IMG/VR virus record: IMGVR_UViG_3300030329_005429
Location: 1-53,976 of that record
Length of the DNA stretch: 53,976 nucleotides
Reading direction: 5' to 3' (one strand)
Origin: a virus
Taxonomy: Duplodnaviria > Caudoviricetes
This document shows, in pieces, positions 7,009-45,700 of this stretch. A model generated the notes under the pieces. That model was not told the origin of the DNA and did not search any database. It saw only the letters and a program-made list of their open reading frames with translations. Each line of letters opens with the position of its first letter. Within the stretch, counting starts at the first letter, position 1. The position numbers and the translations under genes were made by a program.

Positions 7009-7821
7009 TTAGCTCGCTTCGGCTTCTTTAGCTTCTTCGAGCTCTTTTGATATTTGACTCGCTGATATCCCATGCACCTCTTTTGTTTGAGTTATATTCA
7101 ATCTTCTTTCTTCTTCTTCTAAAGATTCTAGCATTTTATGAGTTTCTGACGCTTCGATTGACTCAGTAGTCTTAATAGTCGATTTATCCTTCATACCATG
7201 CATCTCTTGAAGATTATCTACTGCTTTTAGCATATTAGATACATCCTTCTTGTCTTCTGCTATGGTAATAGCCTTTTTTAAAAGCTCCATAGTAAAGTCT
7301 TCAGTCATATCATGCTTTTGAAGTAGTTTTTGCTGTTCCTCTCTTACCATGTCAGTAAATACCTCCGATTTCATCCATCTTTTATATTTCCTTTTATTTG
7401 AATCATTTATATCTTCACCGTGAACTAAATTAATAGCTTGTTCCATCTTTACCCTATTAGAACCCTTGGCTTGAGCATATACCATAGCCATATCCCCTAA
7501 TAGCTGCTTCTTATGAACCTTTAGCCAGGGTTTTCCAGAGAATGTATATTTAGACTCTCTATTTTCAGCTAATAATTTAAAACTTTTATTTACATCTTTA
7601 CAAATGCAGTATCCCCAAGGGAATCTAAAATAAGTGGAACCATTCTTGTATGATGTGCGTTTAATGAGTTTTGATACTATATTATCATCGGATACAGCAT
7701 AATCACCTGAATTAGCTTCTCTCCAGTATTTAAAGTCAATCTTCTCGTCTTGAGCTTCTTCTGATGTTAAAATATTATAGGTTACAGGATTATCCCTGTG
7801 ATTAATTGTTATAGTATACAT
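7009..7821 (-). CDS. Putative terminase small subunit
   Basis: Immediately upstream of terL; helical C-terminal half (LLKKAITIAEDKKDVSNMLKAVDNL); mainly positional. Confidence 0.55.
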   Translation of the reverse strand: MYTITINHRDNPVTYNILTSEEAQDEKIDFKYWREANSGDYAVSDDNIVSKLIKRTSYKNGSTYFRFPWGYCICKDVNKSFKLLAENRESKYTFSGKPWLKVHKKQLLGDMAMVYAQAKGSNRVKMEQAINLVHGEDINDSNKRKYKRWMKSEVFTDMVREEQQKLLQKHDMTEDFTMELLKKAITIAEDKKDVSNMLKAVDNLQEMHGMKDKSTIKTTESIEASETHKMLESLEEEERRLNITQTKEVHGISASQISKELEEAKEAEAS

Positions 7822-11042: not shown

Positions 11043-11237
11043 ATGAAAAGGCCAGTAGTTAAAAAAATAAGGAAATATGTCCCAGATGTTAAAATGATAA
11101 TAACAAAAGATTTGCAAATATGTGCTCTTGTAGGTAAAAAAGAAATACCTTGGGATGAGTATCAAATAAGAAAGAATATGGGTAGAAACGAACCTTGTTA
11201 TTGTAATAGTAATAAGAAATATAAAAAGTGTTGTTAG
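11043..11237 (+). CDS. Small protein with C-terminal SEC-C zinc-binding motif
   Basis: GRNEPCYCNSNKKYKKCC matches the SEC-C consensus GRNxPCxCGSGKKYKxC. Confidence 0.8.
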   Translation: MKRPVVKKIRKYVPDVKMIITKDLQICALVGKKEIPWDEYQIRKNMGRNEPCYCNSNKKYKKCC

Positions 11238-12795: not shown

Positions 12796-13218
12796 ATGCA
12801 AGTAAACCCACAAGTAGTAGACGAGACTAACCATGGTAAATTGTATGATGATAAGTTATGGAAGGTCTTACAAATAAAAAAATACATAAAACCCACTTTA
12901 TCTAGTCAAGATTGCCCTAAAAGGTATAAAATATATTATCTTGCAAAGAAAAAAGTATTAAGGATATTCGGTGAATCTATATCTCTAAAAGGATTAGTAA
13001 GGATACCGAGTTATGTTATGTATGTAAATACAGATAGCTATAAAAATGGAGAAGTAGTGAAGAAGACACAGATAGACCATATTAGTGAGTTTGTATTTAA
13101 AACCAGCTATTTTATGGCTAAAAGGGCAAAGGTATATCGTAAATCAGTTTGCGGTGTATGCCCAAAAATAGAATGTTCTTTCAATAGTAAATACAAAGGA
13201 GAAGTAAATGGCAAATAA
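12796..13218 (+). CDS. Basic hypothetical protein with C-terminal CxxCxxxxC
   Basis: AAGGAG SD; CGVCPKIEC; overlaps the Ubl start. Confidence 0.75.
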   Translation: MQVNPQVVDETNHGKLYDDKLWKVLQIKKYIKPTLSSQDCPKRYKIYYLAKKKVLRIFGESISLKGLVRIPSYVMYVNTDSYKNGEVVKKTQIDHISEFVFKTSYFMAKRAKVYRKSVCGVCPKIECSFNSKYKGEVNGK

Positions 13219-13441
13219 TAATAAAGCAAGCGTATTCTTAAATGATTATGACCACGGTCATAAGCCAAGAAAAGTAGAATATGAAACTTTAGGTGATTTA
13301 GCATCAGGTGAGAATCTTACAACTGATAAAAAAGAAGTAACCATAATGATTAATGGTGCACCTGAAGATGATTTAGGAAAAGCTTTAAGAGATAATGATA
13401 CTGTAACATTTTCTAGAGTTCATCACAAATCAGGAAAATAG
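13208..13441 (+). CDS. Ubiquitin-like (ThiS/MoaD beta-grasp) protein ending SG-K
   Basis: 77 aa; TLGDL, IMING, LRDNDTVTF pattern of beta-grasp proteins; penultimate Gly; upstream of E2/JAB/E1. Confidence 0.8.
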   Translation: MANNNKASVFLNDYDHGHKPRKVEYETLGDLASGENLTTDKKEVTIMINGAPEDDLGKALRDNDTVTFSRVHHKSGK

Positions 13442-13456
13442 TTAGTATTTAAAAAT

Positions 13457-13525
13457 TAGAAGGGGTCAAGATAAGTTCAAATCGAAGATGGCAGTGTCTT
13501 TAATTTTGCTTTGAGACTCCTTCTA
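13457..13525 (+). ncRNA. Hairpin element G (AAGA/UGA internal loop) between the Ubl and E2 genes
   Basis: TAGAAGGGGTC-AAGA...TGA-GACTCCTTCTA, 11-bp stem with one G-U. Confidence 0.65.
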
Positions 13526-13540
13526 TTATTTGGAGAAAAT

Positions 13541-14785
13541 ATGACAAGAAAAGTAGAGAAGTTAGTAAACCTTGTAGAAAGCAATGTTAATCATTCTAAT
13601 CTATATCCAACAAGAGTTATTGCAAAATGGGAAGAAATAAAGGAATTATTCATATTACAAGCTGAATTAGTAGAAAAGAACTTCGAATTACTTGTTACTG
13701 CAAGAAAAAATCCTGAATTTAAAGTGATTTTAAGAGATATTCAAGTGAATACTGATGAAGGTGTTGTTAATATGGGTAATTATATATTGCATTTTAAATT
13801 AAATGTATGGGCTATGAAATGGAGTATTAGCTTTAATCAAGCAATAACTACTGTTTATGGAAGAAAGAAAATAATCCATGGATATCATCCTCATTTAAGT
13901 GGTGGAAGACCTTGTTTAGGAGATTTTAGAGATGAATATAATAATATGCTGGAAAATTTTACAATAATGGACGCAGTTTCTAAATGTAAATCTTTTCTAG
14001 AATGTTATAATAGATTAAATCCTTACCATGATATAGCATATTATATTAAAATAGAAGCAGAAATACCAGGTACTGATGATATAATGGTATGGGAGGGACT
14101 TACTAAAGCCTATACAATGTTTAGAGTAAATGACATTTATGTACCAGGAATGGATAGTTTGGTATTAGGGTCGAGAGATTGGGGAAAATTCAGTAAAATA
14201 ATAGCATCTATAATAGAAAGATATCAATGTAGCCAGCAAAGAGCTGTTGCTATATTTATAAGACACGCAAGATGCTTCTTTTATTTTATAAATAGAAAAT
14301 TAAGCGAATTTTCAGGAATGATTCCAAATTCTGAACTAAATAAATGTGGCTGGTTCTTAGCACATAATGGAAGATACTATCATATAAGAGATTATCCTAT
14401 ATATCTTGATTCAGAAACAACTAGAAAATTAAGAGCATATGATAGAGTTAGATATTTAGATACTTATATGGAAAGATTACATGAAATATTGGACTTAGAA
14501 ATGTCATTTGTTGATGATTTGACAAAATGGGAACATAGAAGTCTAGGATTGTATTCTGAAACATTTAATGGTATATCTATATATCAGGAATTAGGTGATA
14601 GAATAATAAATGAAGGATTTGAAAATCAGAAAGGTGTCCATGAGACATTAGTAGAAGCAGGATATTACATAAGAAGAAAATATCTTGAATATTTAAACTT
14701 AGAAAAACAAAGGATAGAAAATGAAATTATCAATTTCAATGAAGATGGAAAACAAAATAACTTATTTGCTCAACCATTATCTTAA
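13541..14785 (+). CDS. Prokaryotic E2-like (UBC-fold) conjugating protein with long C-terminal extension
   Basis: HPHLSGGRPCLGDF matches the HPH-x-C catalytic signature, followed by FLECYN; GGAG SD before ATG 13541. Confidence 0.75.
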   Translation: MTRKVEKLVNLVESNVNHSNLYPTRVIAKWEEIKELFILQAELVEKNFELLVTARKNPEFKVILRDIQVNTDEGVVNMGNYILHFKLNVWAMKWSISFNQAITTVYGRKKIIHGYHPHLSGGRPCLGDFRDEYNNMLENFTIMDAVSKCKSFLECYNRLNPYHDIAYYIKIEAEIPGTDDIMVWEGLTKAYTMFRVNDIYVPGMDSLVLGSRDWGKFSKIIASIIERYQCSQQRAVAIFIRHARCFFYFINRKLSEFSGMIPNSELNKCGWFLAHNGRYYHIRDYPIYLDSETTRKLRAYDRVRYLDTYMERLHEILDLEMSFVDDLTKWEHRSLGLYSETFNGISIYQELGDRIINEGFENQKGVHETLVEAGYYIRRKYLEYLNLEKQRIENEIINFNEDGKQNNLFAQPLS

Positions 14786-15524
14786 TATTGAATGGAGTGG
14801 TCCATGTTGGTATTCATACAAAAAGGATGAAGATGGATTTCCAACAGAGTTCAAATTAGAACATTTTGTATTATTAGATAAAGGAACAGCATCAGCAACT
14901 GATTGGTCAGGAGAACAGTTCGGTAAAATCTTTCCAATTATCATGAAGAAATACCCAAAACTAAAAAAATGTGTTGTAGGAAATATACATTCACACCATA
15001 CTATGGGAGCATTCTTTAGTGGAACAGATATAGAGCATCTGGAAGAAAATGCAAATAAAGACTTTTATCCAAGCCTTGTAGTAGCAAGGTCAGGAAAAGC
15101 ATTAAAAGCATTTGCATTTAGCTATAAAGACCAATACAATAACATTCATAGATATGAAGTTGATGAAGATGATATAGCAGTAAAGATTCCTAAACCAGAA
15201 AAAGAATGGTTAAGAGAAATAAAAGAAGCAGAAAAAGTATCAAAACCTGAAGCAATAACATTAGCTAGTAATAATAGAGGGTATTATAATGCTTTTAATC
15301 GAAACCACAATCAATCCTATTTATTCAATTATCATCAAAATGGATGGGGAGAAAAGGTATTAGATGAAACAGACCCAAAAACTTGGACGGATGAAGAGAA
15401 GATAGAAGCCTGGCAAGAAGTAATGGATGATATAGAAATGGGGTTTCAAGATACAATAGAAGCTAAAAAAAGGCTAAAGGAAATAGGTGTTAGCTGGGAA
15501 GGAGTAATAGTTGGAAATAAATAG
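14721..15524 (+). CDS. JAB/JAMM metalloisopeptidase
   Basis: N-terminal EWSG glutamate and HSHHTMGAFFSGTD (HxH-x7-S-x2-D). Confidence 0.92.
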   Translation: MKLSISMKMENKITYLLNHYLNIEWSGPCWYSYKKDEDGFPTEFKLEHFVLLDKGTASATDWSGEQFGKIFPIIMKKYPKLKKCVVGNIHSHHTMGAFFSGTDIEHLEENANKDFYPSLVVARSGKALKAFAFSYKDQYNNIHRYEVDEDDIAVKIPKPEKEWLREIKEAEKVSKPEAITLASNNRGYYNAFNRNHNQSYLFNYHQNGWGEKVLDETDPKTWTDEEKIEAWQEVMDDIEMGFQDTIEAKKRLKEIGVSWEGVIVGNK

Positions 15525-16191
15525 TTCTAGGTTTTTAAGAAATAAAGATTTAATAGACCAAAAGAACTTAAAAGGAAAAGTAACTTTAATAGGAGCAGGC
15601 GGAATTGGGTCTGCTCTTATTCAGTTATTAGCAATAATGGGATGGAAAGATGTAATGGTATGGGATGATGATGTATTAGCTCCTCATAACTTATCAACTA
15701 CAACTTATCAACCTAAATACCTTGGAAAAGATAAATCTTTAGTAGCAATGGAAACATTCAATTCATTTTCAGATAAATCTCAAAAAATAAATCATAAACC
15801 ATTTAGATGGTATTCAGATAGTAAGATAAGCCCTAGAGTATTCTTAGGCCCTGACAATATGGATACCAGGAAAGAGGTTTATGAGAAATGGGCTTCATTA
15901 AGCAATAGGGAATTTCTTATAGATATGAGAATGGGTGCATTAGGAATGGAAATAATAACAGCAACAAAAGAAAGCGATAATTATATGGATACTTGGATGG
16001 ATGGTAATTCCATAAAAGACGAAGCTTGTACTATGAAACATACTATATTCACAGCTAATATAGTAGCTGGTTTTGGTATAAATCAGGCATTTTGCGTATT
16101 GCAAGGAATACCATATTATTCGTATATTAACATCAGTTTAACTCCCCTTATCTGTAGGAAAGAGGGGTTTACTGTCTCTAGAACATTATAA
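15511..16191 (+). CDS. ThiF/MoeB/E1-family adenylating enzyme
   Basis: RFLRN, GAGGIGS, DDDVLAPHNL, GPDNMDTR, IDMRMG, candidate catalytic Cys in DEACT. Confidence 0.92.
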   Translation: MEINSSRFLRNKDLIDQKNLKGKVTLIGAGGIGSALIQLLAIMGWKDVMVWDDDVLAPHNLSTTTYQPKYLGKDKSLVAMETFNSFSDKSQKINHKPFRWYSDSKISPRVFLGPDNMDTRKEVYEKWASLSNREFLIDMRMGALGMEIITATKESDNYMDTWMDGNSIKDEACTMKHTIFTANIVAGFGINQAFCVLQGIPYYSYINISLTPLICRKEGFTVSRTL

Positions 16192-22215: not shown

Positions 22216-22370
22216 AATTTACTCCAAATAATTTTTATAATAAATAAGAAAATAACAGCTCCTAATACAGAAAAAACATCAACAATATGATTTCCACTAT
22301 CACTAGATATTGTTCCTACAGGAGTTTCTATAGTAAATTCCCTATCTTCTGTAAATTCTTTATTTACCAT
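22212..22370 (-). CDS. Small membrane-anchored protein (52 aa, not in ORF track)
   Basis: TAATG and ATGA coupling on both sides; IETPVGTISSDSGNHIVDVFSVLGAVIFLFII. Confidence 0.7.
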   Translation of the reverse strand: MVNKEFTEDREFTIETPVGTISSDSGNHIVDVFSVLGAVIFLFIIKIIWSKL

Positions 22371-25300
22371 TATTCTTCCTCTCTTTGCTCTTTTACAAAT
22401 TTATGCATTTTAATATATGGGAAGCCAGTCATTCTTTCTACAGTTTGTATAGGATTTTCAGCAGCTATTTTAACATCTCTTGCAAACCTACCAAAAGGCA
22501 ACATTGTCATTGCATAGTAATCTCCCATCCTACTCCAATCGTCATCTAATAAGGCTTTAAATGTAGGAGGCAATAATCTTAAAGCTGGAGGTGTTACCAT
22601 CTGTAAAGGAGCTATTGCTTTAGGGTATGCTCCAAAGAAAGCCCTGTCCCTCTCTTTTTCATCTCCAAATATCCAATCAGAAAAATCTTGAAACCAATTT
22701 AAAGGAGCAGGAAGAGTATTCTCAAAGATACTATATGTAAATACATTAGCCAAAGCAAACAACATCATATCTGTAGACATTACTCTTTTAAATCTTTCAA
22801 ATTCCATTGTTCCTTTTTGATACCCTCTTTCAGCCGCTTCTTTATATACCATATTCCTAAAAGCAACCGAGTTCCAGGCCCATAATTGAAACCTAGAAAC
22901 TATTTTACCTAAAGAAGTAGCAGCAAAAGCAGGCCTATTGGCTGCATTGTATAAAAATTGAGTATCTTTTACACCTCTTTTTGCCCACCATATTAAAAAT
23001 GGATGTTCAGCTGAATCTACAGCCCCTTTAAACATATCTTTAGCTTGTATATAATGAGCTAAGAAAGAGTCTCTTCTTAATCTTCTTTCTGAAACTCTCA
23101 TAAAGTAAGCTGCTTTATTAAATAATGAATCAGACAACCCAGAACGCTTCCAAACCTCTTTTAAAGTTTTGTCTTTAACAGATGGGTCTTTCTTTATCTT
23201 TTTAACTAACATTTCAAGGCCTTCTTTTACCTTTTTATCTTTAGCGTAATCAGATAATCCAATTTCTTTCCTTAAAAACTCTTCAATAATACCTAAACTT
23301 TCAACCCATTTATAAGTATCCTCTAAAGATTTCCATTTTGTATTTATATTATCGCTTAACCATTTTATATCTCTTGTTTTATTCCAATGTCTTAATCCAA
23401 CAGATTGAACTGTCATTGTAGTACCACCAAATATATTAGCAATAGCAGTTTTAGGATGAGCTAATAATGTTGCCAATTGATATTTAGCTTCTAAATTAGA
23501 CCAATGTTTTAACTTGTCATAAGTCATAATATCTTGTAACTCAGGAGGTAAATCTTTATTACCTAATCCCATTTTCTTTGCTATTTTGTTTATTCTATTT
23601 TTAACAGTAGAATCAGCAAACCAATAGTAAGGTGTTCCCTTTAATGCCATTTTAGGATTATTTACCATATAATCAGGAAGAATATCAGGAAAACCCATTG
23701 ACCTATTAACAAAAAGCTTATAATGATTAGTCCAGGCATCTATATTATCCCAAGCACTCTTATCTGTTATTTTTCCATTTTTATCTGTATATTTCATTTT
23801 ACCTGATTTTTCAAAATTATCAACTATCATCCTTGATAATATCTGAGATGCATTTTTATAATAAGCATCCATAACATTATTCGCATATTTCTCAATAGCA
23901 GCAGGACTCCTATCATAACCAGGTATATGCAATTCTCTTGCCATTTGATGTCCTGATTTCACTACAGATTTATCATAATCAATAATATCAGCAGTTTTAT
24001 CTTTTATTTTTTGAACTATATCATCATATATTCCCCATTGCTTCCAAGTTTCAAGACTAAAATCATCTGTAATATTTCTCATCTTAAGAGATAAAGCAGC
24101 AGCTTTAGAGATTAAACCTTCTTTAGTTGTTTTAGTATAATTCTTATTAGCCAAATCATCCATAGCAGATTGAAGTGCTTTCTCAATATGCTTTCCTTCA
24201 AAATTTACATGAGGAAAGAAATCTTTTCTATATTTAGTTCCCATTTCCTCTAATCTTCTTCTTAATGCAGATTGTAATTTAGGATTCCTAGTCATCTTTA
24301 ATTGTAAGTGAGTTCCAATCCTGTTCATACCATCAACACCAATATCTAATACTTTATCTATTGCTATATTCTCTTTTATAGCGTCCATCATATCTTTAGT
24401 GAATAATTCTAATCTAGCTTGTTCAATACCATTTTCATCTCTATATATATATTTAGATAAAGTTTTAGGATTACCTCTTAACCATTTATTGTAAATATTA
24501 TCAGTAGTTTTTGAATAAAGTTTGTTAATTTCATCCATAATCTGCTGACCAGTCATTTCTTTTGTTTTACTACCAAACCTTACATTGAATACTTTCTTAT
24601 CTACTGCAGCTATCCTTTTTAAAATCTTATCCTGTAACTTTCCATCTTTAACTCCATAAGTCCTTGCTTTTGCATTCATAGATAAATCAGAAGCTTTAAA
24701 AGCATCTAATTTCAATCCAACAGGAAGTTCTCTTTGATATGCTGCTAATTCAGCTAATTCCTGACCTTCTGTTATTGCATTTAAAAATTGGAGTTTATCT
24801 CTAAAAATATCTTCTTGCCTTCTTTTTTCATGCATAGCAAAATCACCTAAATTAGTGATAGCATAGTTTAATTGTCCCATAGCATGAGCAGGTTCATATA
24901 TAATACCTGTTTCAGCCTTTCTATCTAATGGATTCCAAAACATTCCAATTCTTTCTACTAGCTTAAAATCCTTTCTTAACCAGGCTTTATCAGAAGTCAT
25001 TGGAAATGTATTATAAAAATATTTACTTAAAATAGGGTCACCTTTAGTCCATTTTACAAATTGCTTTCCAAGCCAACCTAAATGCTGTCCTGAACGCCTT
25101 GAACCTAATAAATGATTAAAAGCTCTCATATCCTCAATAGTCATTGCATCAGGAGATTTTAAGAATAAATTCTTCATATAACCTTCAACTTTAAGCCCAA
25201 TACTCGGCCCGTAAAAATCTAAATGGTCTAATATTTCATTATATAATCTTTGATTCTCGCTAGATAACGGGACTCTTTTTTGATTTTTATTCTCAGCAAC

Positions 25301-28300
25301 TCTTCTAAATGCTGGTATCTTATCTAAAGCTCTAAGAGTTTCTAATTTAGCCTCTCTCCCCTCACCTAAATCTGCCTTTACACTTGTATCTTCAACTTTA
25401 ACATCAACAGGCTCACTCATTCTTCTTGATATTTCTAATAAATCTTTCTTTAATGATTCTGATATAGGGTCTGTAGTCTCATTAAAAAGTTTTTTATAAT
25501 TATCCCAATATTCACTTACCATTCTATCTGATATAGACTTACTTGAAAAGCCCAATCTATTTACACCAGTAGCATTTATATTCTTTCCTGATGTTTCCAT
25601 AGCAATTTCTTCAATAAAGCTTTTATCTTTTTTATTTCTCAGTCCATAAAATGTCTTTAATTCGTTTGCATATGGTATTCTGAATCCACTTAATAATAAT
25701 GCATCAAAAGCATCCTGTTCTAAATCTGTTAAACTTTCTTTGTATTTACTAATAGCAGCATCTGTTTCTGCTTGATTAACTGACCTTGTTCTTTTAGGGA
25801 GTGGTGTTTCAGACTCTATAGTATATTCAATCTTTGCTTTATCTAAGGCTTCTTTTTGTGCTTGATTTATATTTGAAACCTCTCCTTTTTTATCCTTTAT
25901 AACATATTCATAAGAACCTTCACTTTCTCTATTTAGTAAATAACTATCTTTACTAATAGCATCTGCTTCTAATGCGAGTTCTTGAAGTTTTTCCTTTGGT
26001 AATTGTCTCCAATACTCTATCCCTGTTTTATAGCCTGTCATAACAGATAAATCATTACTAAAAAAATCTTCACCCTGTTTTAATTTATCACCCTCTAATC
26101 TTCCTTGTAAAAACCTAGCTATATTTTTATTAAAAGGAACTACAAATCCTCCCCTATAAAATGCATTAGCTATCTTTTTATTTTCAGGTCTTCTAACCTC
26201 TTCATTGTAATCAGTATAAAGTTGTTGAACAGAATCTAAATTTACCCTTTTTTGATAACCATCTTGCCAATCGACATCTTTCAAAGTATCTGCTTGTTTT
26301 GATATAAAAGATATTCTAGAATCAGCAGGAATATTGTTTATAAAACCAGCTTTTTCTTTTCTTTCATGATATCGCCATTGTCTGTTATTAGCTATGTCCT
26401 TACCATAGTATGCTGTATTTATGTTTGAATAATTTTGAACAGCTTTTCTCTTCATAAATGATGTAACTTTATCTGTTCGCATTTTACCTGTTTTATTTTT
26501 AGCAGATGTCACTTCAAAAAGAGAGTCAAACATTCTAGAGTAATATAACTCAGGATTTACTATACCTATTTCATCTAATGGGTCAGAAGGAAAAGCAATA
26601 GATGCTCTTAATTTTTCTAATGCTTTTTTCAAAGCAGTTTTTTCAGTCTTTAATTTTACAGTAAATGTCGTCTTATTCTTATCTCCAACATCTATATCAA
26701 AAGTCTTACTCTCAGAATCAGCTAATTCATTTATTTTGTCGGTATATAAAGCTATTAAATTTTGCTTCGCAACCACAGCAGGCCCCAATCTATTACGACC
26801 ATCTGCAGCTATATCAGATATAGTTTTTCTATGATTCATAGAATACATAAGAGAAGGGCTTCTTCTTAGATTTATATTTGAACCTGTAGTTACAGTAAAG
26901 TCTTTTCTGTAACCTTCCTTATTATCAGATACTCCTTCATACCAATCGTCTGGATTGATTTTTTTATCCTTAGAAAGTTGACTAAACTCTTCAGGAGTCA
27001 ATACATCTTTCTTGCCTTTTTGACCATATTGAGATTTCTTATAATATCTTAAAAACTCATCTTTATTTTGATTGTATACATCTTTATATTTACTCTTAAC
27101 ATCCATAAAGAGCCACATTTTATCACCATCAGCATCAGCTCCACCAAGCTTTCTCATTATCTCCCCATGTATCAATCCTCCAAAGCCTTTTCTACCAGTG
27201 AATCCACCAAATTTTAATGCAGCAGTTCCACTAATAGAATCAATAGGAACTCTTGTAGTTAAGGCTTCAAAGAATTTAGGTATTTCTTCTTTTAAAACAG
27301 GATTGGTAGTTTTATTGTATAAATCCCAAAGTTCACCTAGATTCCTTGTTCCCCTTATAGAATCTATTTGAGATTTTAAGATTCCAGAGGCCTCTAATGT
27401 TGCTATTAAATTATCATAATTATGCTTTTTATGCCTATGTCCATCATCTAGAAAGTAAATATCTTTTTCTGTTTGAAGTCTTTTTGTTAAGGGATTATCT
27501 TGAAATTCATAATCATATACACGCATTCTAGAAGCTACTGAATTAGGCACTTTAGGTCTAGTGACCTGATGAACTATATAATTCTTTAAAATAGCCTCTC
27601 TATAAGGATTGTTCATTTTATTTAAGAATACAGAGATATGGTCTCCAGCTAATGATAAATTTCTATCACTAACTGAAGTATACTCATTCATTTCTTTCAT
27701 TACATCAGTATATTCTCTTTCACTTTTTTCACCTTCCTCAATAGCCATAGATTCAGCATCTTTATTGATTCTTAGCATTTTTCTATATACTTCTACTTGA
27801 AAATCTCCAAATCCAGGCTCTGTTAATGCTTCTGCTAATTCTGAAGCCCCTATTTTTTCTATATTATCAATTAAAGGTTTCATTAATTTAGGGTCTTTAC
27901 TAGCAAGGTATTCTGAAAGCATTTTATTATACCTATCTTCTCCCTTAAAAGACTTCAAATTATAATCTGTGAAAAATTCATTTATAATTTCAGGTGTAAC
28001 GCCTGGAGAAATAGTCGATAAAGTAGAACCTATTTGCTTTGGCAATCTTTGGTCTTTATTCCCTGATTTTGAAGATACAACCTCTGATAATATAACTCTC
28101 AAATCTTTTGAATTAACTTGGAACATATAATCTCTCATAAGTTGTTCTTGTGAGACATCAAAACGCTTTCCTTTGGCATCATAATCCCAAAATTCAAATT
28201 TACCATCTTTCATTTTACCAAAAACACCTTTTCTACTTCCATATTGCTTAGCTGATGTGGTAGGTAGCATTTGATGCAACCCTAAAGATTCCATAGCTTT

Positions 28301-31300
28301 AGATTGTCTAGGGCCCGCATCAAAATGCATATGCTTCCCTAGCAATGCTCCTGGACCATCTTCTGGTGCAGATATAATAAAGTTCTTGTTTTGACCACTT
28401 TCATTATCTGAAAAATGCAATCCTGCTTCTTTATTTATAGCTATCAAAACATCATCTCTAATAGGACTCCCCCCATCAAAATGCTCTATATTATCTGTAT
28501 TTTTCTTAATTTCCCAAGGCTTCTTTCTCAATCCAAAACCTTTAGGAATATCATCATTAGTTTTTAAGATGATAGTATTTAAGTTTCCATCAACAATATC
28601 AGGAATGTGTTTTAAATATTCAGGGTCAACAGAATGCCCATTAGTAAACCATACTTGCAATCTTTTATTTAATGATATAGGGTCATTTATAAAGCCTTCT
28701 CCAGCTATTTTCTTATAATTAGCAATATTAGGTTTTAATCCATTCATAGATAGATTATAAAATACATTAGAAACCATACCACGATTATATAGCTCATTAG
28801 CTTTTAAACTTCCACCTAAAAACTTGCTATATTTCATTCTAAAATCACGCATATCAGTATCTATATGATTTTTATCTAATTTCATAGATTTTATAATAAG
28901 GTCTTTATTATTATTTATTTCTTGATTAGTTAAAACCTCAGCTCTAGGATGCCATTTATTGTAAATCATAACCTCACTATCAGCTTTACCTCCAAAGTAA
29001 TACATTCCCTTGCCAAGCATTTCTTGATGCATATTACCAATTAATTCATTATAAGCTTTTTCAGCAGTTTCTCTGGCTTTTTTCTCTCCTATTTGAAATT
29101 TTAAATCATTATATATATTTTCTCTAAATTGTAATAATCCAACTTCTTTATTTACACCATTTCCACCTTTTTGAACTACTCCATCTACTCTAATAATAGG
29201 TCTTTGAGATGCATCAGTTATATCTACAGTGTTATTCATCTCTTTTCTATAAACTTCTTCAACATAGAAATTTACCATAGGAATACTTTTTCTATCTCCA
29301 GCCATATTCTGAGGACTTTCAGGGTCTAAATGGCTAATTTTAATATCTTTTATATCTTTAAAGGTAAAACTATCATTCTTTCCTTTTGTATAATTAAAGG
29401 TAACATATGGAGATGCTACAATCATATTCCTTTCGCCAATTCTTCTCTTTAGATAATTCCTGAAAAAGTTTCTTTCTGGGGCATTTTCATTAGACATATC
29501 AAATTTTTCACCATATCTATTTTTCATCCAATCAGAAAGTTCATTTATATCATCATTAAAGTTTTCAGCTTTTTCTAACAATTTTTGATGCAAGTCCTCT
29601 ATACTGACTTTTTTACGAGCAGCGTCTATACTACCATCTTTACGAATCCAAGAAAAGGAAAGATTATCTTCTGCCCAACTTTTAATACGAGGCATAGCAT
29701 CTATTTGAATCTGAACTCCAGTATCTTCTCTTTCAGCTATTGTCTCTAAAGCTTTTTCGACTTCTTCTCTAGCTTCCCCTAATTTAGGTTTATGAAGCTT
29801 TGCTATTTCATCTTGTAGAAATTTATAAGTTCTTGGCGCTCTTTGCGATAATTGAGACCTCTGAGTATTACCAAAGCCCTCAGTTGGAATTACAACAGGC
29901 TTATCTTTTGGTATTTTTTCTATAGCTTTTTGAATAACTCTTTTATTTAAAACAAAATCATCATCAGTAAAGAATGATTCATATCTTTCTCCTGGCAATC
30001 TTTTAGTAGGTATTCCGAAGGCATTTGGCTCATTTCTTACAGAAGCATTTCCTGATGAACCTCTCTTTAAAAAGTCATCTGCAAATATAAATACTTTATC
30101 CTTATTTTTCTGAACATACTCAGGAGTCATTTTGTCTATTGTGTAAAAATCTGGAGTTTTCTTAGAAAAAACTTTTGCCTCAGTTCTTTCTTCTAATATC
30201 TTAGAAACTTCTTCTTTTGATACAAAGCCTTTGTCTATAGCCTCTTTTAAGTAAGGATAGTCTTCTCCAAATCGCTTTATCATCTCTGTAACTTGAGTTT
30301 TTTGTATACTAGCTCTTGAATATTGTTCTACAACTTTTTTAGTTTCAGGAGACCAATCTTTTTGGAGCAAATCTTTTTCTAATTTTATAAGCATCTTATC
30401 AGCAGTTACCTCTTTTTGTAAATCCTGATATCTATATTTCATTGCAGTTCTTCTTGCAGAAGGAGATTCTTTAAATCCAAAATAAGCACCTAATAAGTAT
30501 TCATATATTTGCTCAGGAGCTGTAGCTCCTCTCATAGTAGAAGGAAGTCCTTGGAATAAAGCTCCAGCAATAGAGCCTAAGGCATTCTCTCCTAAAGCAT
30601 TTTCGCCTGGGATAGCAGATTTAAGAAGATTACCAATTCCCCTAAAAGCTCCCCCTGCTACTCCACCATGTATGAATGAATCAACCATAACATCCACACC
30701 TTTTGTCCAAGAAGAAACAGCGGATGCTGTACCTAAATGAAAAGCTCCTTCAGCCATATCTCTTGCAGTATCGTTATATAATAATTTAGATACAGTAGAA
30801 ACTGCTTCGCTTCTCTTTCCAATAGCAGTTGTAATAGCCTTAGCAGCATGTTTAGAAACAGGCTCTGTAACAGCTTTAGCAGCCATCATAGGTACTGACT
30901 TACCCTTTAAGTAAGAAAGTGCCCTTAAGACCCCTATACTGCTCTTAGCCGCTGCTCCTGGTATATAACCTACAAAACCACCAAGATGTCCTAAGCTACG
31001 AGCTATACCTTCCCATTGATTTTTAGGTTGCTCTCCTACTTCTAATGTAGTGAATCCTTCAATAAAACCAGAACCCGCTTGTTTTATCGATTCTAACATT
31101 TTAAATTCTTCATCGGAAGGGTCTCTATTGAACCACATACCATAATGATTTGCATGCTCTTCTATTTGAGAGACTAAATTTTCATTAAAATTCGAAGGTT
31201 TAGAATAATAATTCTTTATTAATCGCTTTGTTAAATCACGATTATATTGAGGTTTAAATTTGTATTCCTCTAGGTTATCCCCAGGTTGAATGTTTTCTGC

Positions 31301-31303
31301 CAT
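22370..31303 (-). CDS. Giant virion/ejection protein with double-psi beta-barrel RNA polymerase motifs (putative virion RNAP)
   Basis: GGADADGDK (D1390/D1392/D1394); RVP at R1351, 39 aa upstream; FDGG (D943), K990 and SAK (K1019) as candidate first-barrel residues; end of ejection-protein cluster. Confidence 0.8.
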   Translation of the reverse strand: MAENIQPGDNLEEYKFKPQYNRDLTKRLIKNYYSKPSNFNENLVSQIEEHANHYGMWFNRDPSDEEFKMLESIKQAGSGFIEGFTTLEVGEQPKNQWEGIARSLGHLGGFVGYIPGAAAKSSIGVLRALSYLKGKSVPMMAAKAVTEPVSKHAAKAITTAIGKRSEAVSTVSKLLYNDTARDMAEGAFHLGTASAVSSWTKGVDVMVDSFIHGGVAGGAFRGIGNLLKSAIPGENALGENALGSIAGALFQGLPSTMRGATAPEQIYEYLLGAYFGFKESPSARRTAMKYRYQDLQKEVTADKMLIKLEKDLLQKDWSPETKKVVEQYSRASIQKTQVTEMIKRFGEDYPYLKEAIDKGFVSKEEVSKILEERTEAKVFSKKTPDFYTIDKMTPEYVQKNKDKVFIFADDFLKRGSSGNASVRNEPNAFGIPTKRLPGERYESFFTDDDFVLNKRVIQKAIEKIPKDKPVVIPTEGFGNTQRSQLSQRAPRTYKFLQDEIAKLHKPKLGEAREEVEKALETIAEREDTGVQIQIDAMPRIKSWAEDNLSFSWIRKDGSIDAARKKVSIEDLHQKLLEKAENFNDDINELSDWMKNRYGEKFDMSNENAPERNFFRNYLKRRIGERNMIVASPYVTFNYTKGKNDSFTFKDIKDIKISHLDPESPQNMAGDRKSIPMVNFYVEEVYRKEMNNTVDITDASQRPIIRVDGVVQKGGNGVNKEVGLLQFRENIYNDLKFQIGEKKARETAEKAYNELIGNMHQEMLGKGMYYFGGKADSEVMIYNKWHPRAEVLTNQEINNNKDLIIKSMKLDKNHIDTDMRDFRMKYSKFLGGSLKANELYNRGMVSNVFYNLSMNGLKPNIANYKKIAGEGFINDPISLNKRLQVWFTNGHSVDPEYLKHIPDIVDGNLNTIILKTNDDIPKGFGLRKKPWEIKKNTDNIEHFDGGSPIRDDVLIAINKEAGLHFSDNESGQNKNFIISAPEDGPGALLGKHMHFDAGPRQSKAMESLGLHQMLPTTSAKQYGSRKGVFGKMKDGKFEFWDYDAKGKRFDVSQEQLMRDYMFQVNSKDLRVILSEVVSSKSGNKDQRLPKQIGSTLSTISPGVTPEIINEFFTDYNLKSFKGEDRYNKMLSEYLASKDPKLMKPLIDNIEKIGASELAEALTEPGFGDFQVEVYRKMLRINKDAESMAIEEGEKSEREYTDVMKEMNEYTSVSDRNLSLAGDHISVFLNKMNNPYREAILKNYIVHQVTRPKVPNSVASRMRVYDYEFQDNPLTKRLQTEKDIYFLDDGHRHKKHNYDNLIATLEASGILKSQIDSIRGTRNLGELWDLYNKTTNPVLKEEIPKFFEALTTRVPIDSISGTAALKFGGFTGRKGFGGLIHGEIMRKLGGADADGDKMWLFMDVKSKYKDVYNQNKDEFLRYYKKSQYGQKGKKDVLTPEEFSQLSKDKKINPDDWYEGVSDNKEGYRKDFTVTTGSNINLRRSPSLMYSMNHRKTISDIAADGRNRLGPAVVAKQNLIALYTDKINELADSESKTFDIDVGDKNKTTFTVKLKTEKTALKKALEKLRASIAFPSDPLDEIGIVNPELYYSRMFDSLFEVTSAKNKTGKMRTDKVTSFMKRKAVQNYSNINTAYYGKDIANNRQWRYHERKEKAGFINNIPADSRISFISKQADTLKDVDWQDGYQKRVNLDSVQQLYTDYNEEVRRPENKKIANAFYRGGFVVPFNKNIARFLQGRLEGDKLKQGEDFFSNDLSVMTGYKTGIEYWRQLPKEKLQELALEADAISKDSYLLNRESEGSYEYVIKDKKGEVSNINQAQKEALDKAKIEYTIESETPLPKRTRSVNQAETDAAISKYKESLTDLEQDAFDALLLSGFRIPYANELKTFYGLRNKKDKSFIEEIAMETSGKNINATGVNRLGFSSKSISDRMVSEYWDNYKKLFNETTDPISESLKKDLLEISRRMSEPVDVKVEDTSVKADLGEGREAKLETLRALDKIPAFRRVAENKNQKRVPLSSENQRLYNEILDHLDFYGPSIGLKVEGYMKNLFLKSPDAMTIEDMRAFNHLLGSRRSGQHLGWLGKQFVKWTKGDPILSKYFYNTFPMTSDKAWLRKDFKLVERIGMFWNPLDRKAETGIIYEPAHAMGQLNYAITNLGDFAMHEKRRQEDIFRDKLQFLNAITEGQELAELAAYQRELPVGLKLDAFKASDLSMNAKARTYGVKDGKLQDKILKRIAAVDKKVFNVRFGSKTKEMTGQQIMDEINKLYSKTTDNIYNKWLRGNPKTLSKYIYRDENGIEQARLELFTKDMMDAIKENIAIDKVLDIGVDGMNRIGTHLQLKMTRNPKLQSALRRRLEEMGTKYRKDFFPHVNFEGKHIEKALQSAMDDLANKNYTKTTKEGLISKAAALSLKMRNITDDFSLETWKQWGIYDDIVQKIKDKTADIIDYDKSVVKSGHQMARELHIPGYDRSPAAIEKYANNVMDAYYKNASQILSRMIVDNFEKSGKMKYTDKNGKITDKSAWDNIDAWTNHYKLFVNRSMGFPDILPDYMVNNPKMALKGTPYYWFADSTVKNRINKIAKKMGLGNKDLPPELQDIMTYDKLKHWSNLEAKYQLATLLAHPKTAIANIFGGTTMTVQSVGLRHWNKTRDIKWLSDNINTKWKSLEDTYKWVESLGIIEEFLRKEIGLSDYAKDKKVKEGLEMLVKKIKKDPSVKDKTLKEVWKRSGLSDSLFNKAAYFMRVSERRLRRDSFLAHYIQAKDMFKGAVDSAEHPFLIWWAKRGVKDTQFLYNAANRPAFAATSLGKIVSRFQLWAWNSVAFRNMVYKEAAERGYQKGTMEFERFKRVMSTDMMLFALANVFTYSIFENTLPAPLNWFQDFSDWIFGDEKERDRAFFGAYPKAIAPLQMVTPPALRLLPPTFKALLDDDWSRMGDYYAMTMLPFGRFARDVKIAAENPIQTVERMTGFPYIKMHKFVKEQREEE

Positions 31304-40891: not shown

Positions 40892-42783
40892 TATGAGGTC
40901 CACCAATTTGTTGTATGAGGAGCTTGTGGGTTAGAATACCAAATTTTATATTGCTCTACAGCACCATGTGGATTTGTATAATTCAAAATAGTTACATTAA
41001 AATTACCAACAACATTATCGCCTGGACTATTTCCATTATCAGACCGTATTTCTGTTATATCAGGAGTTGTATGTGTTCCTGTTACTCCAATCGGTATTCC
41101 GAACCATATATACCCTAGATTTGGACAAGTAATAGCTTGTTGAGTCCATTGATTATAAATATTGCTTGTATTTAATGTTTCATTATTCAGGCTTTCATTA
41201 CTTATTATAACATCAGATGGAGGTTGGCTTGAAGCTCCACAAATTCTATAATTTCTAAAATAAATTTTTTTATGAGTAGCATCTGCATCTACGCTCCAAG
41301 ATTGGCCATCTATAGTTTCAAAGCATTCCGTCATAATATCTGATAATTCAGTATAACCATCTCTTAAACTAGGATTAGTATTTGAAGACGCTCCTACAGC
41401 GCTAGATGCATTAGAATGCAAATGATTCGATTCTGAACTTAAATCGATTTCTGCAGTACTATTTGTATTTGTATTAGCATTATAAGTTCTAAATCTAACT
41501 TTAGGAGTTCCAGAGTCAATTGTTCCTGTAACTTCTGAATATTGAACTTTAGCAAAAAGAGATTGAGATTGTCCTATTGCGATTTGTCCTGGGTCGTAAG
41601 AAGCTCCTCCTAGTGTTTGAGTGAAATAGACATGAGTGCATCTAGGGTCTGGGTCTGGGATTGGCTCTGAAGATTTTTGATAATTATTAGTCCTTATCAG
41701 GAAAGACCTATCAGTAGCTGTTCTTATATGAACCTTTGGGTAACTACTAGAGCCATCTCCTGTATCTTGAACATAAATATCACCTATATTAGGCATTAAT
41801 TCATCATTATTAGAATCCCAATATTGACTAACTGAATCTGTACCAAAATTAACTCTAGTGTTTATCTGTAATGTAGCTCCACCACCTGGGTTTGTTATTG
41901 CTGCATTTTCAAAATTAAATTGAGTTACATTAGAATAATCAGTACTATTATTTACATCTTGAACATCAGGAATGGTATCTGTAGAATTAAAAGTAATAGT
42001 CTCGTTATTAGTCGCAAATGACATTCCAGTACCAGCTGAAAATGTTAATGTATCTGCTGCTTCTTGAGCTGTTACTGTTGTCTGTCCTGCTATTTCTATA
42101 TGCTTAAAAGCATCTCCTCCACCAGCTCCACCAATAGCTGCTCCATTAAATTTTAAAGTTCCATTTTCATTATAAATTTTATTTGTAGTAACTCCTGGAG
42201 CATCCTCAGAAGGCAGTATAAGTCCTCCAGAAGCCTGTTCTACTGTAACTACAACATTACTACCTGAAGTACTAAAATCAACATCTCCTGTCACATTTTT
42301 AGTTCTCAATCTATTGATTGGCTCTTCATTTGTAGTACCAACTACTAAAACTCCTTTTCCTGAACCATTTTCACTAGGAGTCGCATCTATTATAACACCA
42401 GAACTACCTAATGCACTACTTGCAATAGCTGCTGTTCCTGGGCTACCAAATTCAATAGATAAAGCATTATCTGTATTTACCCATTCAAAAGTCTCACTAT
42501 CCTTATTATAAGCCATCATAGCATAATTGTCAGGGTTACGAGGCATTGTGACAGCTTTATCCCAACCTTCATCAGTTCTAAACTCTAATTTATGTTTTGT
42601 TGTAGAGTATTTTGAGCTAGAGTCTTGAATAACTCTAATATCACCTTCTTTTCCCTTGCCTTCTATAGATTGGCTTACATCTTGATTAACTGAATTAATT
42701 ATATCATTAATATCATCATAAATAGTTTGAATTGTTCTATTTAAATCACCTGTTCTTGGAGCTCTTTTATTTGATATAGACAT
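40891..42783 (-). CDS. Tail fibre/hub protein
   Basis: After the nozzle gene; N-terminal coiled coil IQTIYDDINDIINSVN; fibre motifs IYNENGTLKFNG and DTLTFSAGTGM. Confidence 0.7.
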   Translation of the reverse strand: MSISNKRAPRTGDLNRTIQTIYDDINDIINSVNQDVSQSIEGKGKEGDIRVIQDSSSKYSTTKHKLEFRTDEGWDKAVTMPRNPDNYAMMAYNKDSETFEWVNTDNALSIEFGSPGTAAIASSALGSSGVIIDATPSENGSGKGVLVVGTTNEEPINRLRTKNVTGDVDFSTSGSNVVVTVEQASGGLILPSEDAPGVTTNKIYNENGTLKFNGAAIGGAGGGDAFKHIEIAGQTTVTAQEAADTLTFSAGTGMSFATNNETITFNSTDTIPDVQDVNNSTDYSNVTQFNFENAAITNPGGGATLQINTRVNFGTDSVSQYWDSNNDELMPNIGDIYVQDTGDGSSSYPKVHIRTATDRSFLIRTNNYQKSSEPIPDPDPRCTHVYFTQTLGGASYDPGQIAIGQSQSLFAKVQYSEVTGTIDSGTPKVRFRTYNANTNTNSTAEIDLSSESNHLHSNASSAVGASSNTNPSLRDGYTELSDIMTECFETIDGQSWSVDADATHKKIYFRNYRICGASSQPPSDVIISNESLNNETLNTSNIYNQWTQQAITCPNLGYIWFGIPIGVTGTHTTPDITEIRSDNGNSPGDNVVGNFNVTILNYTNPHGAVEQYKIWYSNPQAPHTTNWWTS

Positions 42784-45700
42784 TATCTAGGACTCCTATC
42801 TCTATATAAAATTCCAATAGAATGAATAATAGAAGTTACTCCAGAAAATACCATCTGAATCCATTTAGCTTTTCTATTAGAGCCAGTTAAATTATACATA
42901 TTATTATCAGTCTCAGATGTTAAAGATTTTGAAACATCACCCTTTGAGCTTGTTACGGAAGTCATTTCTGTATTAGCAAGACTAGCTCCTGTTAACCTTA
43001 TTTTTTTAAAGAATTTATCTTGAGTATCTCTACCTAATGATAGTTTTTTACTATACCAAGTAAATTGACTCCTTGCGGTTTCATCTTTTCCAATATTTAT
43101 TAGTTTTGATGAGGTAGACAATAAAACTTCATTTTTAGGAGAAACAACAGCAGATAAACCATTGCTAAATGACCATAAATCCCATCTATTTTTAATTAAA
43201 TTATATACATATGCTTTATTGGCAGTCATAAATATCATAAAAGAATTTATTTTTGCATTATAAGTAACAATAGGCTTAAAAGTGTCTTCATCTAATAAAT
43301 CTTGATATCCTATACCAAAATTCCTATCTACAGATATAGGAGCTGAAATTATAGTTGGATATTCAGTTGTTTGTAAGTAAATATTAAACTTATCTGCAAA
43401 ACACATGCCTACATCAGATGCGAATACAGAGTCTTGGCTTAAACAACCTATTCCTTCATAAGTATCTTCTAATATTAAATTAGAATTAATTACATACATA
43501 TTACTTTCGTCCCAAGCATATACTCTGCCTCTAAAAGCTTTCATAGCCACAGGAATAGTTGGAAGTTTTAAATAATTAATAGACCAATCAAATTGACTAA
43601 AATTACCAGGATTTGATTTAAATATGTAAGCTGAAGCATCTGTTATATTTCTTTGACCACAATTACCAACAAAAAGGCATCCATCTAATACTGTTGAAAT
43701 CTTGTAATTTATAGTTGTATTTCTAATAGTTTCACTCATATTATTAATAGCTTCATATGTAGCTCCACTAACACCTTCATCAATTATAGTTTTTTCATAA
43801 ACACTTATACCTGCTGTAACTATACTACTCCAAGTACTATCCAATCTTACTGATTTAACCAGCCTATATAGTTTAGTTGGACTATCAGTTCTATATAGAT
43901 TTATATGTGTTATTCTTGAACTTATATTAGATACTTTTAATTTTAAAGATATATAACTATAATCATCACTTCCATCATCAACACTATAATTAACAGAATC
44001 ATATTCATTTGCATTAAATTTCCAATTACCCATAGTTAGAGGACTCTCTTGAAATCCATCATATAAAAAAGATATTTTATAATAATAATCTTGCTTACAT
44101 TTAAATATAGTTCCAGAGCCTGGGTCGTTAGGAGTAATTAATGATAAGAAAGAATCATTTGTGCCGAATTTATATTTATGAGGAGTCAATGCACGTCCAA
44201 AATGATTTAAAGTAAAATTTTCTGAGCCAGAATTTGTCTCTCCATCTATTGGAGATATATTATTTATAGTGCTTAATTCAGTATTTATATCTATATTTAT
44301 TAAGCCCATGCCACCATCTCTATCAAACATAATTAACCTGGCTGTAGGAGTAGTATTCATATCTACATCAGTGCTTTGATTAGGTAATCCTGAATCATTA
44401 TATTCTTCAAGTAGCATGATTGAATCCTGCATTCTAGGATGTTGATTGTCAACATCTGCATCTCCATTAGATTTTCCATCTCCATCAAAATTTATTTGAA
44501 AAGAAGTATCATTAAAATATCCCATTTCATCATCTCTATTTAAATCAGGGTCAGTATTACTAGCTCCATTAACTTGCCTTATATCTATTGCGAATAATGA
44601 ATTAAAATAAGGAACAACTCCATCACCATCATCATGACCTATATAATTATTAAAGGAATAAAATAATGTAGATTTACCACTATTTACAGTTGTATTTTCA
44701 TTGAGGCCCTGTAAATTAGTCTGCTTTGGCATCTGGGCTCCATTAAAATCCATAGCTTTTAGAGATGATGTTGTATCATCAAACCATCTTATTTGTCTTA
44801 CTCTATTATCAGGACTGGAAGACTGAAGAGATGAAAAATTATGAGAAGTTGTAGTATAATCACTATCTGAACCCAAACTTTTACCTGTTGTCCAATTTTC
44901 TGTATCATAAAAACCTAAAGCCCCATCATTTCCTACAAAGCTAGTAATATACATTACAACTTTATTTTCTAAATTTACCCTGTATTCATCGCTAGGGTTA
45001 CCACCAGAATAAGTATAGTTATTACTATCTACTGTATCTGCTATTAAAGAATGGAATTTATCTCCTTCTACATTAGTAACTGCATCTATTTTATTTATCA
45101 TCCATACACCATCAGAGCCAGATATCATATTACCATTGTAACTACTCCCGATTTTAGCCATACATCCAACTACAGCATTACCTTCCGCATTAGTATCGCA
45201 ATCAATTCCATACTCATCTGTTAAATCTACCAATGAATATTCTAATGGACATATATTAATACTATTATTTCTTACACCTGGTCCACCACCACTTTCAGCA
45301 GCGCTTGCTCTTTCTGTTCGTAATGAGCGGTATTTTGTTCCGCAATTATCACCTGTATAATTTCCAAAAACAGCATTCGTAAACATTCCAACATTTTTAG
45401 CAATAGTATAGACTCCAGTACCATCTGTTCCGCTATTCCCACCATCATCTAAATTATTTGCAGCGAATGATACATATTCATCAGATTGAGCGCTTTCATC
45501 GAATCTTGAACAAAATAAAGTCCCTGTATTAGTTGGACTTTCTACAGCATCTATTTTAAATCTCCAAGAATAAAGATATGATTCCCAATCATACCCATTT
45601 TGCGACTCAAAACCATAAGAATCACTAAGAGTAAGAGTCCCCATGTGTTGAGGAGTTTTATCGTACAATGTCAAAGTATCGGTTCCGCCACTTTCATCTA

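Follow-up and report, generated by a model that had tools for sequence, protein, structure and literature searches.

Results

Four genes at the locus

The window analysed here is the whole of virus record IMGVR_UViG_3300030329_005429 (53,976 bp, CheckV 100%), and our subject is a cassette of four tightly packed genes on its plus strand, at 13208-16191, which we interpret as a putative conjugation system for a ubiquitin-like protein (Ubl) and which runs in the order Ubl-E2-JAB-E1. The four open reading frames (ORFs) are as follows.

13208..13441, plus strand: Ubl candidate, 77 aa, ending in HKSGK (ORF; conserved Ser-Gly tail)
13541..14785, plus strand: E2-like protein, 414 aa (UBC-like fold model; HPH-x6-C)
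14721..15524, plus strand: JAB/JAMM metallopeptidase, 267 aa (Pfam Prok-JAB; JAMM residues)
15511..16191, plus strand: ThiF-type E1 adenylating enzyme, 226 aa, TTG start (Pfam ThiF; GAGGIG)

The original prediction, made from the sequence of the window, described four consecutive genes with these motifs and with overlaps among the E2, JAB and E1 genes, all of which we confirmed in the ORFs. The last three genes share sequence with their neighbours, 65 nt between E2 and JAB and 14 nt between JAB and E1, and a GGAG- or AGGA-like stretch lies 5' of each of the four start codons; in a scan of 12.5-16.5 kb, promoter and terminator counts were at chance level. Because all full-length homologues align from the Met encoded by the ATG at 13541, we take this codon as the start of the E2 gene; a TTG at 13511 was considered and rejected on the same alignments.

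The JAB peptidase and the E1 enzyme

The two proteins encoded at the 3' end of the cassette score above the cut-offs of Pfam models. JAB matches Prok-JAB (PF14464) with 30.3 bits (E 4.2e-7; cut-off 25), and its catalytic set is intact, consisting of Glu24 (14790-14792) and HSHHTMGAFFSGTD (14988-15029), which reads HxH-x7-S-x2-D; the full JAMM set of E24, H90, H92, S100 and D103 is invariant in 15 JAB homologues. The E1 matches ThiF (PF00899) with 56.3 bits (E 3.3e-15; cut-off 28.1) and carries the nucleotide loop GAGGIG at 15592-15609. Its invariant residues in 16 homologues are R7 (the Arg finger), G28, G30, G31 and G33 (GxGGxG), D52, D54, N60 and K75, together with D115, R120, D138, R140, C173 and K176. 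The lone Cys attributed to E1 by the original prediction proved to be one of three (173, 195 and 215), of which Cys173 (16027-16029) alone is invariant in these homologues. Sequence matches of E1 in PDB are the E1s of NEDD8, SUMO and ubiquitin (E 1e-5 to 4e-4). Its matches to NCBIfam models are partial and far below the cut-offs, namely cap2_3 of 6A-MBL (48.3 versus 320 bits; 5.6e-13), PRTRC_ThiF (35.5 versus 144.75 bits) and the ThiF and MoeB equivalogs (~21-35 bits, cut-offs 159-633); the partial PADLOC matches are the Cap2-type 'E1-E2' (33.3 bits, 4.1e-9) and BilD (17.5 bits, E 3.3e-4, residues 17-123).

The Ubl candidate

The Ubl candidate ends in Ser75-Gly76 followed by a single Lys and the stop codon (Gly codon 13433-13435, Lys codon 13436-13438), and T27, S75 and G76 are invariant in an alignment of 14 family members. 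What follows Ser-Gly varies among the relatives, from 0, 1, 3 or 9 residues to a domain of 130-220 aa. The tail is absent in L009 and L010. Five sequences have a single residue there, namely K in three of them (the window, L013 and L020), R in P0004 and N in L005; L019 has three residues and L018 nine, and these short tails are not conserved in sequence; the long domain is found in crAss-like phages and in Flavobacterium phage FpV4. A small ORF lies directly 5' of the E2 gene in all eight marine relatives with at least 250 nt of sequence upstream of it (8/8).

Precursors of this kind, with an invariant Gly followed by a variable tail, are trimmed by a JAB in Type II Bil systems: as described in the available text of Chambers et al. 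(2023, 10.1101/2023.09.26.559546), Type II BilA carries a universally conserved Gly and at most nine non-conserved residues, which are removed by the JAB BilC. This analogy makes plausible the earlier proposal that the JAB of the cassette would trim the terminal Lys of its Ubl.

In ESM Atlas, the nearest clusters of the Ubl candidate score 0.91, where shuffled proteins reach 0.9 in 4-10% of cases, and ThiS labels occur on 14-19% of their members. Sub-threshold Pfam matches in the family comprise Rad60-SLD in 3 of 14 members (best 4.2e-4), ThiS in 2 of 14, and TGS and DUF348 in one each, and unrelated families such as S4_2 and FHA are matched below threshold as well.

The E2-like protein

With the models of Pfam, NCBIfam, PADLOC and PHROGs, the E2-like protein of the window goes unrecognised, and sequence and profile searches of PDB with it returned nothing relevant. 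The family is rare, as an exhaustive search of 1.84 billion representatives recovered 13 proteins at E<=1e-3; a word-based profile search added a single sequence, tblastn found no relative in 50,697 phage records, and an IMG/VR pattern scan with the single protein found none either. The protein carries the motif HPH-LSGGRP-C, that is, HPH-x6-C (H116, P117, H118 and C125; HPH at 13886-13894, Cys125 codon at 13913-13915). H116, H118 and C125 are the only residues invariant in 27 aligned relatives, and the family motif is HPH-x6-C-[LWYF]-[GA].

AlphaFold gave a predicted local distance difference test score (pLDDT) of 37 from the single sequence and a mean pLDDT of 77.7 with the 27-sequence alignment, the first ~200 residues lying mostly at 78-96. 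In the model, two helices come first, followed by a beta-meander, the HPH loop, Cys125, a helix and more helices; Cys125 is placed just before helix 127-138 and after the beta-meander, as in UBC enzymes. The UBC-like domain would span approximately residues 9-190, and the C-terminal ~220 aa, for which the original prediction had given ~250 aa, are modelled as helical. For this C-terminal part the fold searches gave no lead, and ESM Atlas (residues 195-414) returned no usable feature match and structure rows with template modelling (TM) scores of at most 0.31.

When the model was compared with PDB by Foldseek, the top rows were mostly UBC E2s, for example Ubc13 (2c2v_B; E 0.056, probability 0.97, 148 columns), and the list also held long chains of unrelated proteins, the T7 portal, IKK1 and CagA among them. 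With VIA-align, 57 of 48,161 representative chains reached Z>=5 and none Z>=8, and the best 50 of the 57 were almost all UBC, UEV or RWD folds aligned over E2 residues 9-190. The best matches, both at Z 7.7, were 2h2y_A, with 116 residues aligned at a root-mean-square deviation (rmsd) of 3.6 A, and Ubc13 4ip3_B, with 119 aligned at 2.9 A, and a bacterial BubCD-BubB-BubA entry was matched at Z 5.2. In a second look, 205 of 996 chains reached Z>=5, with Ube2W at the top (Z 8.1). The alignments to UBC, UEV and RWD folds span ~110-139 residues.

Two aspects of these comparisons count against the assignment: Foldseek yielded no PDB match at E<=1e-3, and best Z values of 7-8 are common for models without a true match, so that the scores of the E2 model are middling. 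Because such values mean little by themselves, the UBC reading is based on the uniformity of the list, on coverage of nearly the whole UBC domain and on the invariant HPx...Cys lying in place. On these grounds we take the modelled protein to have a UBC-type fold. As regards the earlier identification of the first two proteins as Ubl and E2, the E2 part draws on this fold model and its HPH...C motif, and the Ubl part on the invariant C-terminal Ser-Gly with its variable tails.

Distribution, gene order and selection

The cassette recurs in two groups of phages. An IMG/VR pattern scan with E1 identified 18 related marine loci, of which 16 contain both JAB and E1, the two other contigs beginning just 5' of the E1 gene; the E2 gene was found with a hidden Markov model (HMM) in 13 of the 18, the remainder being cut by contig ends. 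The second group emerged from tblastn with JAB, which detected relatives in 52 of 50,697 phage records, mostly crAss-like Bacteroides phages and Flavobacterium phages, including DAC15/17, PhiCrAssBcn, Kolpuevirus, a Kehishuvirus record, uncultured cr1xx genomes and FpV3/FpV4. In the annotation of Kolpuevirus (L002) and FpV4 (L053), primase is followed by proteins of 261-289 aa, of 388-420 aa and of 423-426 aa, the last of these a 'metalloprotease/hypothetical' protein, and then by a 'thiamine biosynthesis protein', and in FpV4 a uracil-DNA glycosylase gene lies between primase and cassette. A search of IMG/VR with the crAss-like E2 yielded 31 crAss-like loci, with the Ubl-extension protein in 30, JAB in 30 and E1 in 29, all misses being at contig or locus ends; the HMMs behind this crAss-like count were built partly from the same sequences. 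The gene order is kept wherever contigs allow.

In the Kolpuevirus/FpV4 type, the first protein comprises a Ubl-like region of 90-95 residues ending in K-[KR]-[IV]-[KR]-S-G (VKSGG in FpV4), followed by an extension of 130-220 residues, and the E2-like protein of the crAss-like phages and FpV4 carries HSH-x17-(S/N/D)PCLG in place of HPH-x6-C. At L034:2490-3425, the extension includes the C-terminal domain of ribosomal protein L7/L12, which passes the cut-off of Pfam PF00542 (E 7.2e-11), and since this domain is missing in other lineages, the extension is modular. Several extensions (L022:2672-3442, L034, L043, L046 and L048) end in an acidic stretch, S-E-I-[ND]-x-[LM]-F and a further 4-5 residues, an end that may resemble short docking peptides such as sliding-clamp-binding motifs. 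An observation of another kind concerns the crAss-like E1: at L025:6306-7406, an insertion of ~1.1 kb splits the gene right after GxGGxG, and the frame resumes at 7407. A group I intron (Rfam RF00028, 91.8 bits, E 6.9e-24, 7109-7371) lies in the insertion, which also carries two LAGLIDADG-like ORFs, and the E1 gene of L029 is probably split in the same manner.

In the window, the cassette adjoins on its 3' side genes for a Sak4-like AAA_24 ATPase, a 205-aa uncharacterised protein and a primase-helicase (Pfam, PHROGs), within a plus-strand region of ~10-21.5 kb that holds small early genes and replication genes; the structural genes (major head protein, portal, large terminase and endolysin according to PHROGs) are on the minus strand. 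Downstream of the cassette in the 18 marine loci, 15 have the 205-aa protein, 16 the Sak4-like ATPase and 10 the primase-helicase, and most of the absences are at contig ends. As far as contigs allow, the cassette lies inside the replication module in all 18 marine and all 31 crAss-like loci.

The ratios of non-synonymous to synonymous substitution rates (dN/dS, Nei-Gojobori) were 0.18-0.19 for E1, 0.27-0.28 for JAB, 0.20-0.30 for Ubl and 0.45-0.51 for E2, which indicates that all four genes are under purifying selection and hence maintained, E2 being the fastest-changing. Amino-acid identity between the window and its nearest relative, L003, is 84% for E1, 62% for JAB and 45% for E2.

Discussion

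A proposed self-contained conjugation cascade

We consider it slightly more probable than an even chance that the four genes form a self-contained, E3-less Ubl conjugation cascade, which the phage would express together with its replication and recombination genes. This view combines sequence, the fold model and analogy with bacterial systems, and as far as sequence, fold and synteny are concerned, the reading of the locus as a conjugation cassette is well supported. The set looks complete, is encoded by a phage and lies in a replication/recombination block, and JAB and E1 pass the Pfam thresholds, so that the central proposal of the original prediction stands at this level.

A possible course of the reaction can be outlined from the sequences, the conserved residues and the precedent of Bil and eukaryotic systems. 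JAB would cut the 77-aa precursor after Gly76 and thereby remove Lys77, whereas in relatives it would remove 0-9 residues or the entire C-terminal domain. E1, with ATP, would then adenylate the carboxylate of Gly76, and the Ubl would probably be passed onto the invariant Cys173, which adjoins the helix after the crossover region. From there the Ubl would move to Cys125 of the UBC-fold protein, in which HPH sits where classical E2s have HPN. The E2 would finally attach the Ubl to lysine residues on one or several target proteins, and its fast-evolving, helical C-terminal half may choose the target. JAB may also take the tag off again.

Several observations weigh against such a cascade. For E2, none of the 27 family members matches Pfam UQ_con or Prok-E2_A to E at E<=0.01, the best trace being one UQ_con match at E 0.096, and none of the 27 homologues matches the E2 models of PADLOC and NCBIfam. 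The E2 profiles of the marine and crAss-like groups align by hhalign with a probability of 31% (E 5e-4) across 88 columns that span the meander and active site, and structural matches of E2 in BFVD include crAss-like proteins at probability 0.77-0.85; sequence and model thus lend modest support to homology between the two. For Ubl, the beta-grasp signals are weak, being limited to the ESM Atlas score and to sub-threshold Pfam matches mixed with unrelated families, and a PDB profile search with the family found nothing relevant. The Ubl profiles of the two groups align with a probability of 1% (E 0.054), at which homology is not demonstrable, and the presumed link between them is made solely by synteny and the Lys-Ser-Gly end. 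In its 226 aa, the E1 consists of a bare adenylation domain without a recognisable E2-docking or CYS domain, and its sequence shows no evident route for handing the Ubl over to E2; the usual products of ThiF-type enzymes of this size are thiocarboxylates. The cassette also has no E3. It is, moreover, dispensable in at least one lineage, as a further crAss-like locus (L052:3579-3875) lacks Ubl, JAB and E1 between primase and the next genes and keeps a 98-aa remnant of E2 (HMM E 2e-9); here the cassette seems to have been deleted naturally.

Relationship to known systems

By analogy, the cassette would work most like a Type II Bil system. Both have separate genes for Ubl, E2, JAB and E1, a Gly followed by a tail that JAB removes or, in the cassette, would remove, and, in BilABCD as far as it is described in the source, no E3. 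BilD, however, is a large E1 with an inactive and an active adenylation domain and a CYS insertion (described in part of 10.1101/2023.09.26.559546), whereas the phage E1 is a single domain of 226 aa that does not have this architecture. No PADLOC match at E<=1 was obtained for Ubl, E2 or JAB as BilA, BilB or BilC, and none among the 27 E2 homologues. The cassette cannot be assigned to Bil because of these missing matches and because its E1 lacks the BilD architecture. The setting differs as well, with the cassette in the replication module of lytic-looking phages and BilABCD in bacterial defence islands.

The best partial matches of the E1 come from Cap2/Cap3 of type II CBASS, the anti-phage signalling systems that rely on cyclic oligonucleotides, and from 6A-MBL, which also have a JAB partner, and the cassette E2 keeps the classical His and Cys, as do those of classes 6a and 6b in the relevant part of Iyer, Burroughs and Aravind (2006, PMC1779556). 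In Cap2 and 6A-MBL, as far as the sources describe them, E2 and E1 are fused (in 6a with JAB too), there is no Ubl, and it is the C terminus of the CD-NTase that is conjugated. The cassette has separate ORFs rather than such a fusion, contains a Ubl candidate, and falls far short of the cap2_3 cut-off with the score given above. No CD-NTase or metallo-beta-lactamase partner occurs among the PHROG and Pfam matches of the scanned ORFs, a result of general scans rather than of a dedicated search.

PRTRC systems (TIGR03734-03742; class 6d) resemble the cassette in having separate genes for Ubl, an E2-like protein, JAB and a ThiF-type E1 on mobile DNA. The window reached 15.6 bits with PRTRC_A (cut-off 101.8) and, as stated, 35.5 bits with PRTRC_ThiF, and neither PRTRC_B nor PRTRC_C had a match in it at E<=10. 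Whereas the class 6d E2s lack a His upstream of the Cys according to Table 1 of PMC1779556, the cassette E2 family has the invariant HPH or HSH there. An identity with PRTRC, or class 6d, was ruled out on these two grounds, the blank PRTRC_B and PRTRC_C models and the upstream His, the latter within the limits of that table. No ParB-related partner is present among the PHROG matches, a result of a general scan rather than of a search aimed at ParB.

In lambda and T1, TAPI and TAPK (class 5 in the corresponding part of PMC1779556) likewise represent a phage Ubl with a conserved terminal Gly and a C-terminal domain predicted to be cut off by the neighbouring JAB, and the crAss-like/FpV4 form of the cassette shares this architecture of a Ubl with a removable domain. 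In contrast to the cassette in its replication module, TAPI and TAPK have no E1 or E2 and belong to a tail gene cluster. The closest structural matches of the modelled E2, finally, are eukaryotic UBC E2s (Ubc13, Ube2W, Ube2S and Ube2K; Z 7.2-8.1, 112-129 aligned), which likewise have an HPx motif six residues before the Cys at the catalytic position. They share only 12-16% identity with the cassette E2, which has an extra N-terminal helix and the 220-aa C-terminal helical domain.

Alternative functions

A defensive role has to be weighed first. The phage could use Bil-like Ubl tagging of the structural proteins of co-infecting phages, and thus exclude competitors. The characterised four-gene Ubl/E2/JAB/E1 systems are anti-phage, and Bil tags the central tail fibre of phages according to the available text of PMC11601603 and of a preprint by Hor et al.; E2 evolves fastest, as expected in an arms race, and the cassette is missing from one crAss-like phage (L052). 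Against this, no PADLOC defence model matches Ubl, E2 or JAB, the E1 has only partial matches to Cap2 and BilD, and no integrase family occurs among the PHROG matches of the scanned ORFs. The position in the replication module is fixed across two very divergent phage groups, unlike that of variable defence islands. We judge the exclusion of competitors to be unlikely.

Alternatively, the cassette may serve counter-defence, with JAB stripping the Ubl or CD-NTase conjugates of host Bil or type II CBASS systems and with Ubl, E1 and E2 acting as decoys or competitors. It would suit this proposal that JAB is the most widely detectable part, with its 52 phage records, and that the top model matches of E1 are Cap2-type enzymes of CBASS and 6A-MBL. 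However, all four genes, including the catalytic Cys residues of E1 and E2, are conserved under purifying selection. A lone deconjugase would not require the other genes, and the varying tails behind Ser-Gly suggest that the cognate Ubl is what JAB processes; we regard a decoy-assisted deconjugase as quite improbable.

Least of all do we expect a sulfur carrier, that is, a ThiS/MoaD-like small protein thiocarboxylated by a ThiF-type enzyme for cofactor, tRNA or DNA thiolation, which is implied by the GenBank label 'thiamine biosynthesis protein' on the crAss-like and FpV4 E1 and would agree with the ThiF/MoeB size and type and partial NCBIfam matches of the E1, with the ThiS labels around the Ubl in ESM Atlas and with the known sulfur-assimilation clusters of JAB, ThiS/MoaD and E1 (Iyer et al. 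2006, PMC1779556, Table 1), but which is opposed by the constant company of a UBC-fold protein with an invariant HPH...Cys, by ThiF/MoeB scores far below their cut-offs, by the fusion of the crAss-like Ubl 5' of a large unrelated domain and by the scan of the ORFs (Pfam; PHROGs, 45 ORFs), in which, as the original prediction had remarked of sulfur-transfer and cofactor genes, no rhodanese, desulfurase, ThiG/ThiH, MoaE or cofactor gene was seen.

A proposed role in the infection cycle

If the conjugation cascade is the right reading, the question becomes whom it serves. Because its place in the replication module of lytic-looking phages is fixed, the position of the genes suggests that the cassette serves the infection cycle of the phage itself (host takeover, counter-defence or control of replication proteins) and is not an accessory defence island. 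In its fullest form, which we advance tentatively and at somewhat less than even confidence, the proposal is that Bacteroidota-type phages, the crAss-like ones and the marine family, run a Ubl pathway of their own for their own benefit, tagging host or phage proteins during replication by means of an unrecognised, E3-free E2 family with a eukaryote-type HPx...Cys.

That bacterial operons of Ubl, E1, E2 and JAB conjugate proteins is a recent finding, and those that have been characterised act against phages. In the cassette, this Ubl logic would appear on the side of the virus, in a fixed place beside replication genes. If phages do run it for their own benefit, prokaryotic viruses would have their first pro-viral Ubl conjugation system, a mirror image of the Bil and CBASS defences. 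An active cascade would pose the testable question of what the phage tags and why, and would add an E2 family undetected by the current models of Pfam, NCBIfam and PADLOC. The cassette occurs in culturable phages (DAC15/DAC17, a Kehishuvirus record, PhiCrAssBcn, Kolpuevirus and FpV4), and crAss-like phages dominate the human gut virome.

In the crAss-like gut phages the cassette appears to have gone unrecognised. The GenBank records of Kolpuevirus sp. 'frurule' and FpV4 label its genes 'thiamine biosynthesis protein', 'metalloprotease domain containing protein' and 'hypothetical protein'. We found no paper in which ThiF, MoeB, JAB/JAMM or ubiquitin-like genes are connected with crAss-like phages, although subscription papers and supplements could still contain one, and phrases for phage-encoded ubiquitin or Ubl likewise led to no paper in the searchable literature.

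Other features of the record

The sequencing runs that carry the record are labelled as marine metagenomes, with no RNA run among those listed. The large terminase (TerL) is at most 26.5% identical to that of any phage record, and no tRNA genes were found in the window. Two giant ORFs lie on the minus strand, at 22370-31303 (2,976 aa) and 42783-47276 (1,496 aa), and match no PHROG family at E<=1e-5. Immediately upstream of the cassette, a plus-strand ORF of 140 aa with a Cys-rich C-terminal part (12796-13218) overlaps the start of the Ubl gene by 11 nt; as none of the 18 related loci has a homologue, it probably stands outside the cassette. Further upstream, a 64-aa ORF (11043-11237, plus strand) ends in a Lys-rich motif of the form Cys-x-Cys ... 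Cys-Cys, which presumably resembles the SEC-C metal-binding motif at the C terminus of SecA.

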